From positions 1 through 64,000 of the forward strand of contig JBJKRI010000006.1 in the NCBI GenBank assembly GCA_046704725.1: a stretch of DNA of 64,000 nucleotides, given 5' to 3'. Under the pieces are notes generated by a model, which worked only from the letters and a program-made list of their open reading frames with translations, had not been told where the DNA came from and ran no database searches. A program made the position numbers and the translations under genes. This stretch comes from Candidatus Woesearchaeota archaeon. Its GTDB lineage: Archaea; Nanobdellota; Nanobdellia; Woesearchaeales; SKIA01. Shown one piece after another: positions 17,116 through 63,981 of this stretch (positions are counted from its first letter, which is position 1; each line of letters opens with the position of its first letter).

Positions 17116-17210
17116 TGGGCCCGAGGGGATTCGAACCCCCGACCAGCCGCTTAAAAGGCGGATGCTCTAGTGCCCGTGCTTTCGTGCACTCCAGGCTGAG
17201 CTACAGGCCC
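17116..17210 (-). tRNA. tRNA-Lys(UUU) with 21-nt D-loop insertion (about 17170-17190)
   Basis: GGGCCTGTAGCTCAGCCTGG[AGTGCACGAAAGCACGGGCAC]TAGAGCATCCGCCTTTTAAGCGGCTGGTCGGGGGTTCGAATCCCCTCGGGCCCA. Confidence 0.9.
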
Positions 17211-17215
17211 GTGGA

Positions 17216-17288
17216 CGCCCTGGCCGGGATTTGAACCCGGGTCGGAGCCTCGACAGGGCTCCATGCTAGGCCTCTACACTACCAGGGC
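17216..17288 (-). tRNA. tRNA-Asp(GUC)
   Basis: GCCCTGG acceptor stem; GAGCC-CTGTCGA-GGCTC anticodon arm; GGTTCAAATCC T-arm. Confidence 0.96.
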
Positions 17289-24088: not shown

Positions 24089-24123
24089 CGAACGCTTATA
24101 ACCTGAATCGCCATGTATAGGGC

Positions 24124-24309
24124 ATGGTCAAACGATGGAAAGAGGAATGGAAAGGCTGCCCCACCGTGAAGGTATCGCTCGCGGGGATCTGGTTCGCGGG
24201 ATGGCTGTTCACGCTCGGTTTTCTCAAGCTCGCGTTCTGGTACGGCGTGCTCGCGATCGTCGTGTGGCCGTACTATCTCGGGAGCTTCTACTCGGGGATC
24301 GTGCACTGA
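24124..24309 (+). CDS. Small membrane protein (61 aa)
   Basis: Hydrophobic WFAGWLFTLG...VWPYYLG; TTATAA upstream. Confidence 0.65.
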   Translation: MVKRWKEEWKGCPTVKVSLAGIWFAGWLFTLGFLKLAFWYGVLAIVVWPYYLGSFYSGIVH

Positions 24310-24368
24310 ACACCCCACTGGACTTGCATGCCGAACAGATTCTAATTCGTGTTCTGCATGAGAACCAT

Positions 24369-25046
24369 ATGCGCATCCATCCACTCAAATTAGGTCATGA
24401 GAGGCTCACGCCCGCGAAAGCCCGAATCATCGCGCACCTCATCGGTGACGGTTGCGCATGCAGATCAGGGAGCGATTACCATATCAAATACGCATCCAAC
24501 GATGAAGCACTTCTTGAGCAGTTCTCGAAAGACATGTGTTTCGCGTACGGATTGCGCACGAAACGATATCTTGAGCGCAGCGGAAAGACAGGAAAGCCCT
24601 TGCCTCTAGTTCATGCGCGTTCCAAACGCGCGTTCCTCGACCTCATGCAATACTCCTCGTTCTATTCACGCGAGTGGATTGTTCCGGCAGACATACAGCA
24701 AGGCAATCCCGAGATACGACGTGCATTCCTGCAGGCGTTCTTCGATGATGAAGGGACTGCATTCCTCGTGAAGGGACGCTTGATGATCCGTGCGTATTCT
24801 ATAAACAAGCCAGGACTGATCGCAGTGCAAAGGATGCTATCCGACTGCAGAATCGAGACCCGTCTACGCTCAGGTTTCGGAATGCGACGGAACGTGTATG
24901 GTATTGAGATCATCGACCAAGAACGGTTCGCGGCAAGAATCGGTTTCTCTTTGAAGCGGAAGCAGGACATCCTCCTTGCAGAACTCTTCTTCATAAGAGA
25001 AGAAAAAGTCCCCCCTCCCAGACTCGAACCGGGGACCCCTCCGTGA
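24369..25046 (+). CDS. Free-standing double-motif LAGLIDADG endonuclease-like protein
   Basis: ARIIAHLIGDG and RAFLQAFFDDEG; terminal IGF...K motif; 3' end overlaps tRNA-Tyr antisense. Confidence 0.85.
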   Translation: MRIHPLKLGHERLTPAKARIIAHLIGDGCACRSGSDYHIKYASNDEALLEQFSKDMCFAYGLRTKRYLERSGKTGKPLPLVHARSKRAFLDLMQYSSFYSREWIVPADIQQGNPEIRRAFLQAFFDDEGTAFLVKGRLMIRAYSINKPGLIAVQRMLSDCRIETRLRSGFGMRRNVYGIEIIDQERFAARIGFSLKRKQDILLAELFFIREEKVPPPRLEPGTPP

Positions 25047-25138
25047 CTGCTGATCGCAGGTCATCCAGACCCGAACGGGTTTGTCTTGCGACGATTCTTT
25101 TCTACAGCGGAGTGCTCTAGCCACTGAGCTAAGGGGGG
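25009..25138 (-). tRNA. tRNA-Tyr(GUA) with canonical 37/38 intron (25045-25101, 57 nt)
   Basis: C1-G72 pair; CTCCG-CTGTAG/A-CGGAG anticodon arm; BHB-like CTGT/GCAG helix with AGA and TCA bulges; spliced length 73 nt. Confidence 0.93.
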
Positions 25139-32598: not shown

Positions 32599-32671
32599 AG
32601 CCCCGTGGTGTAGAGGCCAAGCATCGAAGCCTTTGGAGCTTTGGACCGCGGTTCGAATCCGCGCGGGGCTA
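32599..32671 (+). tRNA. tRNA-Gln(UUG), no intron
   Basis: AGCCCCG acceptor (A1-U72); GAAGC-CTTTGGA-GCTTT; GGTTCGAATCC. Confidence 0.95.
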
Positions 32672-49422: not shown

Positions 49423-50031
49423 CTACACTCCGACGCCGATGCTCGCCAAATAGCCCGTGACGCCGTTGAAGATGAACTGCGCCGCGATGACGAGCACGAT
49501 GAGGCCGAGGATGCGCTCTGCGATGTTCGCGCCGTTCTCGCCGAGCACGTTGCTCAGAACGCTCGAGAAGCGCAGGAACAGCCAGCTCACGATGGCGACG
49601 AGCACGATGGCGACACCGATGAAGACGTACGACGAGAGGGACGCCGATTGGGCGAGGACGAGCGTGGCGGCCATGGAGCCGGGGCCCGCCAATAGCGGGA
49701 TGGCCACAGGGATGATGGCCACGTCATTCGAGGGTTTTTCCATGCCCTTGTAGAAGTCCTTGGAGAGCATGGAAAAGGCGATCTTGCCGAGGTACAGTCC
49801 GCCGGCAACGCGGAAGGCGTAGATGGTCACGCTGAAGAAATGCATGAGGGCCTGGCCGAGGACCAAGAAGATGAGGAGCGTGACCGCGAACGCTATTGCC
49901 GCGGTGTAGGCGAGGCGGTACTTGCGCTTTTTCGCCTCGTGCGCGGTGAGCCCGTCGAAGACGAAGGCAGCGCTGATCGGATTGACGATGGGAAACAGCG
50001 TTCCGAAGGCGACGAGGATCTCGGCGATCAT
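49423..50031 (-). CDS. MarC-family membrane protein
   Basis: IVNPI, FRVAGG, PVAIPLLAGPG, RILGLIV. Confidence 0.93.
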   Translation of the reverse strand: MIAEILVAFGTLFPIVNPISAAFVFDGLTAHEAKKRKYRLAYTAAIAFAVTLLIFLVLGQALMHFFSVTIYAFRVAGGLYLGKIAFSMLSKDFYKGMEKPSNDVAIIPVAIPLLAGPGSMAATLVLAQSASLSSYVFIGVAIVLVAIVSWLFLRFSSVLSNVLGENGANIAERILGLIVLVIAAQFIFNGVTGYLASIGVGV

Positions 50032-50156
50032 GCCTCGTTCCCGGAGAGGTTGTTTTTAAGGGTTGGGGAGCTGAAAAATTTCTCACGCGGTCGCAAAATA
50101 TTCGACCGGACAGACACGGGCGCAAGGGTTAGAAGCGAGTGCAGCATCGACCCTTT

Positions 50157-51041
50157 ATGAGCTTTCGCTTGCGGTTCGAACCTGGCGTCCAGCGAGCGTT
50201 CCTCATGGAGGCACGAGAAAGGCTCGAAGGGAGCTGGAAGGACCTGGCGGAATCCATCGGCGTGGACGCCGGGTCTATGCAGGAGTGGAAAGAGGAGCGG
50301 CAGCCCTTGCCGGAGATTGCGTACCAGCGGCTCAAATGGGACCGCAGCTATGATGCGTATATCCAGGAGGTGCTACGAGCGGCAGGCACGCAACGGCACC
50401 TGCGGATGCCGGAGAAGTCCGCGGAGCTCGCGGAGTTCATGGGAGCGATCATGGGGGACGGGAACATCAGCCGCATCCGTGGCAAACCGAAGGTCGTCTG
50501 CTACGAGGTCAGAATCGCGGGGCACGGCGAGCTCGATTACGACTATCTCAAACGCCATCTCGGAGGTATTGCGTCACGGCTGTTCGGTCTTGCAGGCAAG
50601 ATGCGGTTCCACCACAGCAAGGATCACAACTGCGTATACCTGACTTTCTCGAGCAAGGATCTCGTGGAATTCCTCGAGCAGATGGGCGCGCCCGTCGGCA
50701 ACAAGATGGAACAATTTCTCGAGATACCTGACTGGGTGATCGCGGAGGATGCATTCCTCCGCGCGTACATCCGCGGCCTCTTCGACACGGACGGGAGCGT
50801 CTTCCGCATGTCCAACAAAGACCCACAACTATTGCGGATTGGCTTAACATCGTACAACCACAGCCTGATATACGATGTTCGGGCAGCGCTGCGCAATCTC
50901 GGATTCCACCCGTCAAAACCGACGAATCATGAGCGCAGGATCTATCTCTCGCGGAAAGCGGACGTACGAAAGTATTTAAAAGAAATCGGGTTCGCCAATG
51001 ACAAGCACAAGCGAAGGCTTGCGCAGTTCACAGCCCCGTAG
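50157..51041 (+). CDS. Free-standing double-motif LAGLIDADG protein with N-terminal HTH
   Basis: SWKDLAESIGV...MQEW; LAEFMGAIMGDG; RAYIRGLFDTDG; IGF.N.KH; stop codon lies inside tRNA-Gln. Confidence 0.88.
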   Translation: MSFRLRFEPGVQRAFLMEARERLEGSWKDLAESIGVDAGSMQEWKEERQPLPEIAYQRLKWDRSYDAYIQEVLRAAGTQRHLRMPEKSAELAEFMGAIMGDGNISRIRGKPKVVCYEVRIAGHGELDYDYLKRHLGGIASRLFGLAGKMRFHHSKDHNCVYLTFSSKDLVEFLEQMGAPVGNKMEQFLEIPDWVIAEDAFLRAYIRGLFDTDGSVFRMSNKDPQLLRIGLTSYNHSLIYDVRAALRNLGFHPSKPTNHERRIYLSRKADVRKYLKEIGFANDKHKRRLAQFTAP

Positions 51042-51135
51042 TGTAGAGGCCAAATAGTCGTGCCTTCAATGGACACTAGGTAAATCATCTTCGGCCCTGG
51101 ACCGAAGGACCGCGGTTCGAATCCGCGCGGGGCTA
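51032..51135 (+). tRNA. tRNA-Gln(CUG) with about 30-nt D-loop intron (about 51054-51083) and C at position 33
   Basis: Acceptor stem and T-arm identical to tRNA-Gln(UUG); 104 vs 73 nt; TTCGG-CCCTGGA-CCGAA; T-tract follows. Confidence 0.88.
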
Positions 51136-51178
51136 TTTTTCGAAAGCCATTTCAATAGACTATGCGGACAGAAAGCCC

Positions 51179-51760
51179 GTGATAACGATCGGCGGCTCGT
51201 TGACCGTCGTGCTCGCGTGCTGGATCGTCATGGGACTCTACTGGGCGGTATCGGCGATCTTCGCCAAGAAGGCCGTCACCAAGCGGGACTGGCGGATCGC
51301 CATCCTCTGGCGGGTCGTGCTCATCGCGGCTGTCATCGTCTTCGTCGCTTCGGACAAGTCCGGCGCGATCGCGTTTTTCGACGCGGTCCTGAGCAGCGCA
51401 TACGCATCGCCCATCGTCGGCTCCATACTCACCGTGATCGGTGTTATCGGGGCGTTGTGGTCGCGCACCGTGCTCGGAAGGAACTGGAGCGGCTATGCGA
51501 CCTACAAGGAAGGGCACGAACTGGTGACGAGCGGTCCGTACCGCATCGTGCGCCACCCGATGTACCTGAGCATCATCCTGATGCTCATCGGCACCATCGT
51601 GTACTACGGCTCGCTTCTCATCCTCGTGGCGCTCGTCGGTTTCACCATCATGTTCGTGCGGCGCATCCACAAGGAGGACGCGTACATGCAGCAGCTCTTC
51701 GGCAAGCGTTTCGAGAGGTACGCGCAAAGCACTCGCGCATTGATCCCGTGGGTGTGGTGA
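51179..51760 (+). CDS. Isoprenylcysteine carboxyl methyltransferase / PEMT-family membrane protein
   Basis: HELVTSGPYRIVRHPMY, FG..FERY, LIP. Confidence 0.92.
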   Translation: MITIGGSLTVVLACWIVMGLYWAVSAIFAKKAVTKRDWRIAILWRVVLIAAVIVFVASDKSGAIAFFDAVLSSAYASPIVGSILTVIGVIGALWSRTVLGRNWSGYATYKEGHELVTSGPYRIVRHPMYLSIILMLIGTIVYYGSLLILVALVGFTIMFVRRIHKEDAYMQQLFGKRFERYAQSTRALIPWVW

Positions 51761-63401: not shown

Positions 63402-63981
63402 GGATATCGTCTTCCGATCGTTTCTCGACACGCCAGACCGCGTCCTGTACGGGTATGACCATGACCCCGCCCGTGCGGAGCTGCCCGACGAGTTCCTGGG
63501 GAAGCTCGTTCGCAGCGGCGCTCACGAGGATACGATGGTAGGGCGCTCCCGCCGGATAGCCCAGCACGCCGTCGGCGGGGATGATGCGCGCATCACCCTC
63601 ATCATAGGTCTCGAGGTTCGCGCGCCCGAACTCGACGAGAGAGGGTTCGCGCTCCACGCCGACCACGCCTCCCTCCGGACCGACGATGTCGCTGAGCAGC
63701 GCCGTCGTCCATCCGCTCCCGCTACCCACGTCGAGCACGTGCTCTCCGGGCAACGGCGCGAGGAGTTCGAGCATGATCGCGACGGTGTGCGGCTGGCTGA
63801 TGGTCTGTCCGGCGCCGATGGGAAGCGGCTGGTCGAGATACGCGAAGCGCTTGTCCTCTGGCCGCACGAAGCCCGCGCGGTCGACCCTCCGGAACGCGTT
63901 GACGATGCGTTCGGTCCGGAGCGATCCTTCCGCGACGAGTCCTTGCACGAGCGTCTCGTTCGTCTCCATGCTCCGGGACAT
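63349..63981 (-). CDS. pcm: Protein-L-isoaspartate O-methyltransferase
   Basis: GQTISQP, VLDVGSGSGW, APYHRILVSAA, FRFVPL. Confidence 0.95.
   Translation of the reverse strand: MSRSMETNETLVQGLVAEGSLRTERIVNAFRRVDRAGFVRPEDKRFAYLDQPLPIGAGQTISQPHTVAIMLELLAPLPGEHVLDVGSGSGWTTALLSDIVGPEGGVVGVEREPSLVEFGRANLETYDEGDARIIPADGVLGYPAGAPYHRILVSAAANELPQELVGQLRTGGVMVIPVQDAVWRVEKRSEDDILIEKHSGFRFVPLRAGR

Follow-up and report, generated by a model that had tools for sequence, protein, structure and literature searches.

A free-standing LAGLIDADG endonuclease gene docked on an intron-bearing tRNA-Gln(CUG) gene of a Candidatus Woesearchaeota archaeon is probably a tRNA-targeting homing element

The subject of this study is a LAGLIDADG endonuclease gene (50157..51041, + strand) of a Candidatus Woesearchaeota archaeon that ends inside an intron-bearing tRNA-Gln(CUG) gene (51032..51135, +). 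Both lie in a DNA stretch of 64,000 nucleotides (nt), hereafter the window, which comprises positions 1 to 64,000 of contig JBJKRI010000006.1 (C6:1-64000; assembly GCA_046704725.1, genome label G000). The genome has a size of 1.18 Mb and a G+C content of 60.7%, is 99.7% complete and possesses archaeal-type, intron-bearing tRNAs. We found that LAGLIDADG genes dock on tRNA genes, and that this docking is not due to chance. Judged from the sequences of the locus and its relatives, the gene is probably a free-standing homing element that would insert near tRNA nt 25 and carry a replacement for the 5′ part of the tRNA, while the intron would keep the target from re-forming. We infer cleavage, the cleavage site and intron-based immunity from such sequence patterns.

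The open reading frame (ORF) stops with TAG at 51039-51041, which corresponds to nt 8-10 of tRNA-Gln(CUG), so that its last two sense codons and the stop together occupy nt 2-10. The 5′ exon of the tRNA (51032..51053, +; nt 1-22 by straight count) is interrupted 12 nt after this stop by a 31-nt D-loop intron (51054..51084, +), whose boundary is ambiguous by one A. The 3′ exon (51085..51135, +) comprises the anticodon CUG at 51097-51099 within the loop CCCUGGA and the discriminator A at 51135. This arrangement, a protein ending in ...QFTAP, its stop codon within the tRNA and a D-loop intron about 12 nt further on, had been described in the original prediction, which was made from the DNA letters alone, and the ORF call and the Infernal alignment bear it out. 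The tRNA scores 40.8 bits with the Rfam model (gathering score 29); its alignment pairs GUGU with UCAU in the D-stem, holds 35 nt where the model has 2 and reads the anticodon arm as UUCGG-CCCUGGA-CCGAA, which gives the anticodon CUG. Since tRNA-Gln(UUG) at 32599-32671 begins with nearly the same 22 nt and ends with nearly the same 29 nt, the gene is tRNA-Gln(CUG) and not tRNA-Arg(CCU), as ARAGORN with introns called 51032-51135; this call was rejected on the basis of both the alignment and the near-identity. Rfam at the gathering threshold over the whole window and ARAGORN without introns both missed the gene. The intron calls of ARAGORN were unreliable at two further partners of LAGLIDADG genes, where Arg(CCU) was called Ala and Thr(CGU) was called Leu. 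We read these genes as tRNA-Arg(CCU) with a 29-nt intron at 28/29 (C8:56442-56545) and tRNA-Thr(CGU) with a 21-nt intron at 37/38 (C5:231656-231750).

The 31-nt insertion is a candidate archaeal bulge-helix-bulge (BHB) intron, the type removed by the splicing endonuclease. Splicing at 51054-51084 would give the D-arm GUGU/AGAGGCCAA/UCAU, as in relatives, and the genome encodes one tRNA-intron endonuclease homologue (PF01974, 106.8 bits, 187-codon frame, C3:90975-91235). A firmer assignment is opposed by the fact that only a relaxed motif fits, with three of four pairs in the central helix and 4 bp in the inner helix. The introns of relatives at the same D-loop site mostly show four of four central pairs and long inner helices. 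As a side observation, the anticodon loop (51095-51101) carries C and not the near-universal U at position 33 (51096). The same loop CCCUGGA occurs in the partner tRNA-Gln(CUG) of locus L118, whose protein is the sister of the window's on the tree described below, and of locus L127; where relatives lack the nuclease gene at tRNA-Gln(CUG), this loop reads CUCUGGA or UUCUGGG.

In the genome as a whole, the Pfam family LAGLIDADG_3 (PF14528) matches eight genes. Seven are free-standing and one, a 1116-codon frame with two such matches (C5:72546-75896), presumably represents the intein of a large, ATPase-like protein. Six of the seven free-standing genes adjoin a tRNA gene, within 60 nt except for one at about 80-110 nt, compared to a background of 50 out of 2120 open frames of at least 200 codons (2.4%) that lie within 60 nt of any of the 45 tRNAs. 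Introns occur in five of the six partner tRNAs, but in only 8 of the 39 others (Fisher p = 0.005). The genome-wide statistics extend what the original prediction had noted for the window, namely that both LAGLIDADG genes there touch intron-bearing tRNAs and that none of the three tRNAs without an interruption has such a neighbor. The former are Gln(CUG) and Tyr, the latter Asp, Gln(UUG) and Lys(CUU). Three of the docked genes end in the 5′ end of a tRNA on the same strand, namely Gln(CUG), Ala(CGC) and the re-read Arg(CCU). Another frame (C7:63551-64588) reads through the entire intron-less tRNA-Thr(GGU) (63559-63631) before it stops, and in a same-genus relative its sister, with an in-frame TAG, stands beside a tRNA-Thr(GGU) that carries a D-arm intron. 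The copy about 80-110 nt downstream of a tRNA, the one re-read as Thr(CGU), is frameshifted. The second LAGLIDADG gene of the window (open frame 24102-25046, +) overlaps by 39 nt with the 3′ end of the intron-bearing tRNA-Tyr (25008-25138, -), and its protein groups with a support of 98 with copies that lie beside tRNA-Tyr in three relatives, in different orientation. No tRNA is found near the seventh free-standing gene (C3:184277-185275).

Docking is equally evident in relatives. From a sample of 40 relatives of the same order, all 60 free-standing genes (open frames <450 codons) among the PF14528 matches listed were fetched. Rfam alone detects a tRNA within 30 nt of 16 of these 60 copies. 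A strict finder of our own, which requires a T-arm and a perfect acceptor stem and replaced a looser parser that produced many false spans in AT-rich DNA, detects one within 60 nt of 29 of them, 18 downstream on the same strand, 9 convergent and 2 upstream. This is an undercount; in many of these genomes, detectable tRNAs are very scarce. For example, the near-complete relatives G007, G008, G017, G019, G023, G026 and G033 comprise only 9-12 Rfam-detectable tRNAs under stricter filters, suggesting that their tRNA genes are very heavily interrupted; G033 also possesses at least 18 LAGLIDADG_3 matches. The best 150 of 1025 Rfam tRNA matches of the order, ranked by score, were kept apart from any estimate of background intron frequency. 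Among the matches listed, the closest homologue within the order is 41% identical and ends with ...YIAP-stop in a tRNA-Gln(UUG) with a D-loop intron.

A wider scan, with one genome per species, yielded 474 relatives, of which the best 80 were inspected at the level of the locus (57 archaeal and 23 bacterial). Their records are titled Woese-, Pace-, Nano-, Iain- and Aenigmatarchaeota or belong to bacteria of the candidate phyla radiation (CPR). A tRNA lies directly downstream on the same strand at 46 of the 57 archaeal and 19 of the 23 bacterial loci, to which ARAGORN adds L120, L164 and L187. The ORF usually stops at tRNA nt 8-10 (tails ...AP) or nt 13-15 (tails ...SPVV or ...SPIV), and the partners are mainly Gln, Glu and Asp in archaea and mainly Ser in bacteria. 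We compared the phylogeny of the proteins with the isotype of the partner tRNA in a FastTree analysis of 141 proteins, after dropping 5 of 146 rows with less than 150 residues; the frameshifted copy was left out. The protein clades follow the isotype: it needs 29 changes on the tree compared to 60.2 in shuffles, and none of 200 shuffles was as low, despite some wrong automatic labels of the ad hoc finder (L121 is Gln, L032 is Tyr and L021 is Leu). Each partnered LAGLIDADG gene of the window's genome groups with genes of relatives at the same isotype (support 98 for Tyr and 99 for Thr), while archaeal and bacterial clades are interleaved. Two further peculiarities were seen among these loci. 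In L190, a CPR-type bacterial record, two near-identical complete copies of tRNA-Ser flank the nuclease gene. In L049, L133, L134, L146 and L148, the last 14 nt of tRNA-Gln (3′ strand of the T-stem plus acceptor) are repeated about 70-105 nt downstream, sometimes preceded by a TTCGAA-like piece; these repeats may represent remnants of 3′ ends or alternatives to them, perhaps combined with T-loop introns.

Insertion is indicated by truncated tRNA copies in relatives. At 13 of 83 loci with a downstream tRNA on the same strand, the first 12 nt of the tRNA are repeated upstream of the ORF with at most two mismatches, while about 2 such repeats would be expected by chance according to a rough estimate; a pass with 14 nt gave 11. 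Eight of the relics are long and clean (L117, L119, L123, L125, L136, L144, L150 and L186). They represent an intron-less copy of the first 22-27 nt of the tRNA that runs uninterrupted across the intron site and breaks off at nt 24-27, with identities to the spliced tRNA of 25/25 in L136, 25/25 in L144 and 27/27 in L186. The relic is usually followed by an AT-rich, TATA-like stretch and then by the ORF. At all eight loci the complete tRNA differs from the relic in the D-arm: five have a D-loop intron between exons that are identical or near-identical to the relic, and three have several D-arm changes without an intron. In the five intron-bearing loci, the relic breaks off 3-5 nt 3′ of the intron site. 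Because relic and complete tRNA are compared within one locus, lineage effects cancel. From their sequence, we take the relics to be the remains of intron-less tRNA genes that were broken at the 3′ side of the D-stem. A mirror image was found at the convergent copy L042 (G001:C1) beside an intron-less tRNA-Lys(CUU), where an exact 21-nt repeat of tRNA nt 54-74 lies beyond the 5′ end of the gene, which suggests that the element inserted at the T-loop and supplied a new 3′ part of the tRNA.

The protein itself has the features of a LAGLIDADG nuclease. The open frame spans 50133-51041 (+) with candidate starts at GTG 50139, ATG 50157 and ATG 50205, of which ATG 50157 is favored, since the conserved N-terminus of the homologues aligns from there (MSFRLRFEPG...). 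The resulting protein of 294 amino acids plus TAG matches LAGLIDADG_3 above the cut-off of that model (E 2.4e-14). Motif 1, AEFMGAIMGDG, is encoded at 50430..50462 (+) with the catalytic D101, and motif 2, RGLFDTDG, at 50772..50795 (+) with the catalytic D212. In an alignment of 28 family members, E93, G96, G100, D101 and G102 of the former and R206, G207, L208, D210, T211, D212 and G213 of the latter are invariant. At the N-terminus, about residues 12-89 (50190..50423, +) form a helix-turn-helix (HTH) domain; positions 12-89 of the family profile match the MBF1-like HTH chain 2mez_A (E 7.2e-6), and Pfam HTH_3 (PF01381) is present in one homologue. The family profile matches intein endonucleases, I-Tsp061I, I-DmoI and PI-PfuI as well. 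An AlphaFold2 (AF2) model with a mean predicted local distance difference test (pLDDT) score of 90.4 shows helices at 11-75, and its top Foldseek matches are LAGLIDADG enzymes of inteins and archaeal introns, namely I-DmoI (E 1e-8, template modeling (TM) score 0.75 on target length), I-Tsp061I and PI-PfuI. The list also includes bI3 maturase and, at rank 35, a WhiA complex, and the Pfam WhiA-type model PF14527 reaches 19 bits, below its cut-off of 23.2. AF2, Foldseek and Pfam together reveal two LAGLIDADG helices that each end in a catalytic Asp and the duplicated alpha-beta-beta-alpha-beta-beta-alpha fold. The ORF product is thus predicted to be a single-chain, two-motif LAGLIDADG nuclease with an N-terminal HTH and no sign of a dead nuclease, in agreement with the original reading as an HTH-fused LAGLIDADG protein. 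The window's copy is presumably still active.

The distribution of gene and intron is patchy. Among the PF14528 matches listed, the gene is found at only 1 of the 27 tRNA-Gln loci of the order, and the other 26 loci have an ordinary TATA box at about -35. Within the genus of the window's organism, G002 has neither gene nor intron, G001 has no gene and a different D-arm intron, and G004 has both gene and intron. In the window's genome, Gln(UUG) lacks gene and intron while Gln(CUG) possesses both. Furthermore, copies with in-frame stops or frameshifts occur in the family. The gene upstream of the locus (49423-50031) codes for a membrane protein; four genomes of the same genus possess an orthologue, in no case beside a tRNA or nuclease gene, and the downstream neighbor has no clear orthologue in same-genus genomes. 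No exact empty site is definable, since the flanks are too diverged or no syntenic tRNA is found. The exact 29-nt exon-intron pattern gave no match in metagenome_contigs, where a protein scan revealed only four distant relatives of 36-41% identity and no near-identical gene-less allele. A look-up of sequencing runs that cover 49900-51400 yielded none. As read from these genomes, sporadic presence and decayed copies correspond to the cycle of a homing endonuclease gene and not to a conserved regulator.

How the tRNA might be transcribed from within such an arrangement deserves attention. In this genome, xTTTTTAAx or TTTATA is found at -35 to -26 of most tRNAs. Upstream of the nuclease ORF, the TATA-like box GTTTTTAAGG (50049..50058, +) fits the tRNA-promoter motif xTTTTTAAx and is a possible promoter of the element. 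A second TATA-like sequence, TATTTAAAA (50973..50981, +), lies inside the ORF at the codons Y-L-K of KYLKEIGF, 51-59 nt 5′ of the tRNA, and is a candidate for an embedded tRNA promoter, although its spacing is atypical compared to the other tRNAs. This region uses the Leu codon TTA, which accounts for 0.9% of the Leu codons of the genome, beside the minor codons TAT, AAA and GAA. The Ala- and Arg-linked LAGLIDADG genes likewise contain TTTTTAA with a TTA codon, 12 and 24 codons before their ends. These patterns suggest that tRNA promoters are embedded in the 3′ part of nuclease ORFs. The earlier statement that tRNA-Gln(CUG) has no separate promoter is doubtful in view of the TATA-like TATTTAAAA, which consists of rare codons. 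Transcription of the tRNA probably starts from this box or proceeds together with the ORF, e.g. from GTTTTTAAGG. Oligo-T acts as a transcription terminator in archaea, and the run TTTTT directly behind the tRNA (51136..51140, +) may serve as such. Host promoters embedded in T4 endonuclease genes favor the retention of these genes (PMC2988022).

Taken together, we propose the following scenario. The enzyme would cut an uninterrupted tRNA gene near nt 22-27, on the 3′ strand of the D-stem. Repair would then copy in the promoter, the nuclease gene and a replacement of the first ~21-25 nt of the tRNA, so that the nuclease gene is followed by a fully reconstituted tRNA gene and no element needs to be spliced out. 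The ORF would run into tRNA nt 1-10 and stop at the conserved UAG because the whole tRNA is rebuilt behind it. As the rebuilt junction would recreate the cut site, carriers would avoid renewed cleavage through a short D-loop BHB intron, 3-5 nt from the junction, or through a changed D-arm; the window locus would use the intron route. If repair were templated by the tRNA part of the element alone, alleles with the intron and without the gene would arise, such as the one of G003 described below. Such a course would be similar to the trans homing known from mobE of phage T4 (PMC2988022). Should transcription of the ORF extend into the tRNA, RNase P cleavage would deprive the message of its stop codon.

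Several observations weigh against this scenario. At the window locus no relic is visible: the best local alignment upstream of the ORF scores 13 compared to a shuffled mean of 13.9, and the T-arm-like GCGGTTCGAACCTG at 50171-50184 was rejected as a relic since, by a rough estimate, about 2 such matches are expected by chance. The other five docked loci of the genome equally lack a relic and show only 14-mers at chance level. Because of this, the insertion model for the window is an extrapolation from relatives that are 30-46% identical. Moreover, introns are not obligatory. Among 47 archaeal partner tRNAs, 23 contain a D-region insertion of 13-71 nt, 6 are interrupted by an intron in the anticodon loop alone and 18 have no insertion at all; the CPR partners all lack one. 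The D-loop introns mostly follow GG(C/U)CAA and match BHB-like motifs. The comparison of these 23 of 47 with 4 of 26 gene-less tRNA-Gln of the order, the latter read by eye, is descriptive, mixes lineages and includes related genomes that are not independent. G003, of the same genus, has no gene, yet its tRNA plus intron is 91% identical to that of G004; outside the tRNA, the flanks of the two do not align. An intron can thus be maintained, and perhaps even originate, in the absence of the nuclease gene. Finally, tRNA-Lys(UUU), which lies 5 nt from tRNA-Asp on the minus strand of the window (17116-17288), has a D-loop insertion of about 21 nt with a BHB-like motif and neither a LAGLIDADG neighbor nor a TATA box of its own. 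The original prediction had already listed it as a counter-example, and it stands. That prediction had proposed a tRNA-targeting homing system in which a short intron protects the allele. Its targeting part gains support from the isotype-specific clades, the patchiness and the relics, and protection by the intron is plausible; the intron is not obligatory.

The introns might, in fact, have nothing to do with the gene. A mobile or formerly mobile nuclease gene could simply accumulate at tRNA flanks that tolerate insertions, in genomes where tRNA introns are common. The intron-less partners, the G003 allele and tRNA-Lys(UUU) would all fit such a passive association, as would the very few Rfam-detectable tRNAs of many relatives, which suggest a general disruption of tRNA genes. 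However, each protein clade keeps one isotype across phyla, which calls for sequence-specific targeting. Furthermore, the stops of the ORFs fall into fixed registers within the tRNA, the relics break off at a single point, 3-5 nt away from the intron site, where precisely the rebuilt tRNA differs in eight of eight cases, and introns are enriched at the partner tRNAs of this genome. Thus, we regard a mere accumulation at tolerant sites as unlikely. A variant of insertion in which the gene once resided inside a large D-loop BHB intron, a situation known from archaeal rRNA introns, with a duplication of the 5′ exon in that intron and the short intron as its remnant, would explain why a short intron occurs at one conserved site beside the gene and why upstream copies of the 5′ exon exist. 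Yet the upstream copies cross the intron site unbroken. As they include nt 22-25 of the 3′ exon, past the intron site, they derive from intron-less genes broken at about nt 25 and not from a 5′ exon with its end at the intron site. Of all the explanations considered, we give this origin the least credence.

Only marginally more credible, and still very improbable, is the idea, already raised in the original prediction, of a domesticated protein: a LAGLIDADG-derived DNA- or RNA-binding factor, comparable to WhiA or an intron maturase, that regulates or processes the neighboring tRNA. The extra HTH domain, the tight linkage to one tRNA with overlapping coding and tRNA sequences, the occurrence of bI3 maturase and WhiA among the Foldseek matches and the weak, sub-threshold WhiA-type Pfam match agree with such a role. 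It is disfavored, however, by the two catalytic Asp residues that are invariant in the family, by the sporadic distribution (gene absent at 26 of 27 tRNA-Gln loci of the order among the matches listed), by pseudogenized copies, by the presence of the family at different isotypes in archaea and CPR bacteria and by the target relics, which indicate insertion events. The homing element with a replacement tRNA part hence remains the reading that we prefer.

Viewed as such an element, the gene resembles several known systems while differing from each. Its best profile and structure matches, I-DmoI, I-Tsp061I, PI-PfuI and the Tli VMA intein, have in common with it the fold, the two-motif architecture and the catalytic acidic residues. 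However, their genes reside in rRNA introns or inteins, both of which are spliced out, whereas the window gene is free-standing, encodes an additional N-terminal HTH and abuts a tRNA. WhiA is a bacterial transcription factor that combines a LAGLIDADG scaffold with an HTH, located at its C-terminus, and that has lost the catalytic residues. The window protein is likewise a fusion of both parts, but its HTH is N-terminal and both Asp are retained, so that it does not conform to the WhiA type. In the mitochondrial atp6 gene of Allomyces, a mobile endonuclease ORF reportedly inserts and brings along a replacement 3′ end, while the old end is left as a pseudo-fragment. In both cases the element would repair its own insertion damage with a substitute gene end, and a relic of the resident end stays behind. 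atp6 differs as a protein-coding gene with an exchanged 3′ end; here a tRNA gene and its 5′ end (the 3′ end in convergent clades) are concerned, together with an intron at the RNA level.

Collaborative or trans homing is closer still in its layout. It is described for F-CphI of cyanophage S-PM2, whose free-standing gene lies next to the intron-bearing psbA, and for mobE of phage T4 with the nrdB intron (PMC2988022; see also PMC2790892, PMC6083498). As in these systems, a free-standing gene adjoins a presumed target gene with an endonuclease-less intron: the 31-nt intron contains no endonuclease gene of its own, and the nuclease ORF ends 12 nt upstream of it. Here, this intron would lie at the putative cut site or close to it, confer immunity and travel along with the nuclease gene. 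F-CphI and mobE, on the other hand, involve group I introns, protein-coding phage genes and enzymes of the HNH or EndoVII type, while here we find a 31-nt archaeal BHB intron candidate, a cellular tRNA gene, a LAGLIDADG enzyme and a replacement 5′ part of the target that would be carried along. A tRNA region is also the target of SegB of T4, a free-standing GIY-YIG endonuclease in a tRNA gene cluster that cuts the tRNA region of a rival genome and thereby achieves intronless homing; free-standing enzymes are further described as cutting at a distance of hundreds of bp from their genes (PMC2988022). SegB is a phage enzyme of another nuclease family, and in our case the gene overlaps the tRNA and the putative junction lies only about 25 nt away.

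All parts of the proposed system are thus of known kinds, namely free-standing endonucleases, intronless homing, SegB, collaborative homing and, reportedly, the replacement of gene ends. What appears to be absent from the literature searched is a system that unites them on cellular tRNA genes and in which a BHB intron would be the likely source of immunity. A full-text search, which did not extend to subscription journals, found no paper on LAGLIDADG genes docked on the tRNA genes of DPANN archaea or CPR bacteria. The gene may therefore represent an undescribed lifestyle, in which an endonuclease gene undoes its insertion into a tRNA gene through its own promoter and a replacement 5′ (or 3′) tRNA piece and in which a BHB intron or a recoded D-arm confers immunity; we put this broader claim forward tentatively, at slightly less than even chances.

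The system bears on an old question, the origin and purpose of archaeal tRNA introns at non-canonical positions. Such introns have been proposed to protect against mobile elements. Here, a defined nuclease, a candidate tRNA-gene target of 20-30 bp and natural alleles that would be protected (by an intron or a changed D-arm) or unprotected make this idea testable, and enzymes with specificity for tRNA genes may serve as rare cutters. If our reading is true, D-loop introns would also be passed on, during the repair of cuts, to alleles that stay without the gene, a concrete way in which archaeal tRNA genes could acquire introns at non-canonical positions. Besides introns and inteins, it would add a third way for endonuclease genes to neutralize their insertion in essential genes. 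The same family of elements occurs in both radiations of ultra-small prokaryotes, the DPANN archaea and the CPR bacteria, and if the proposed homing takes place, this family would move between them.

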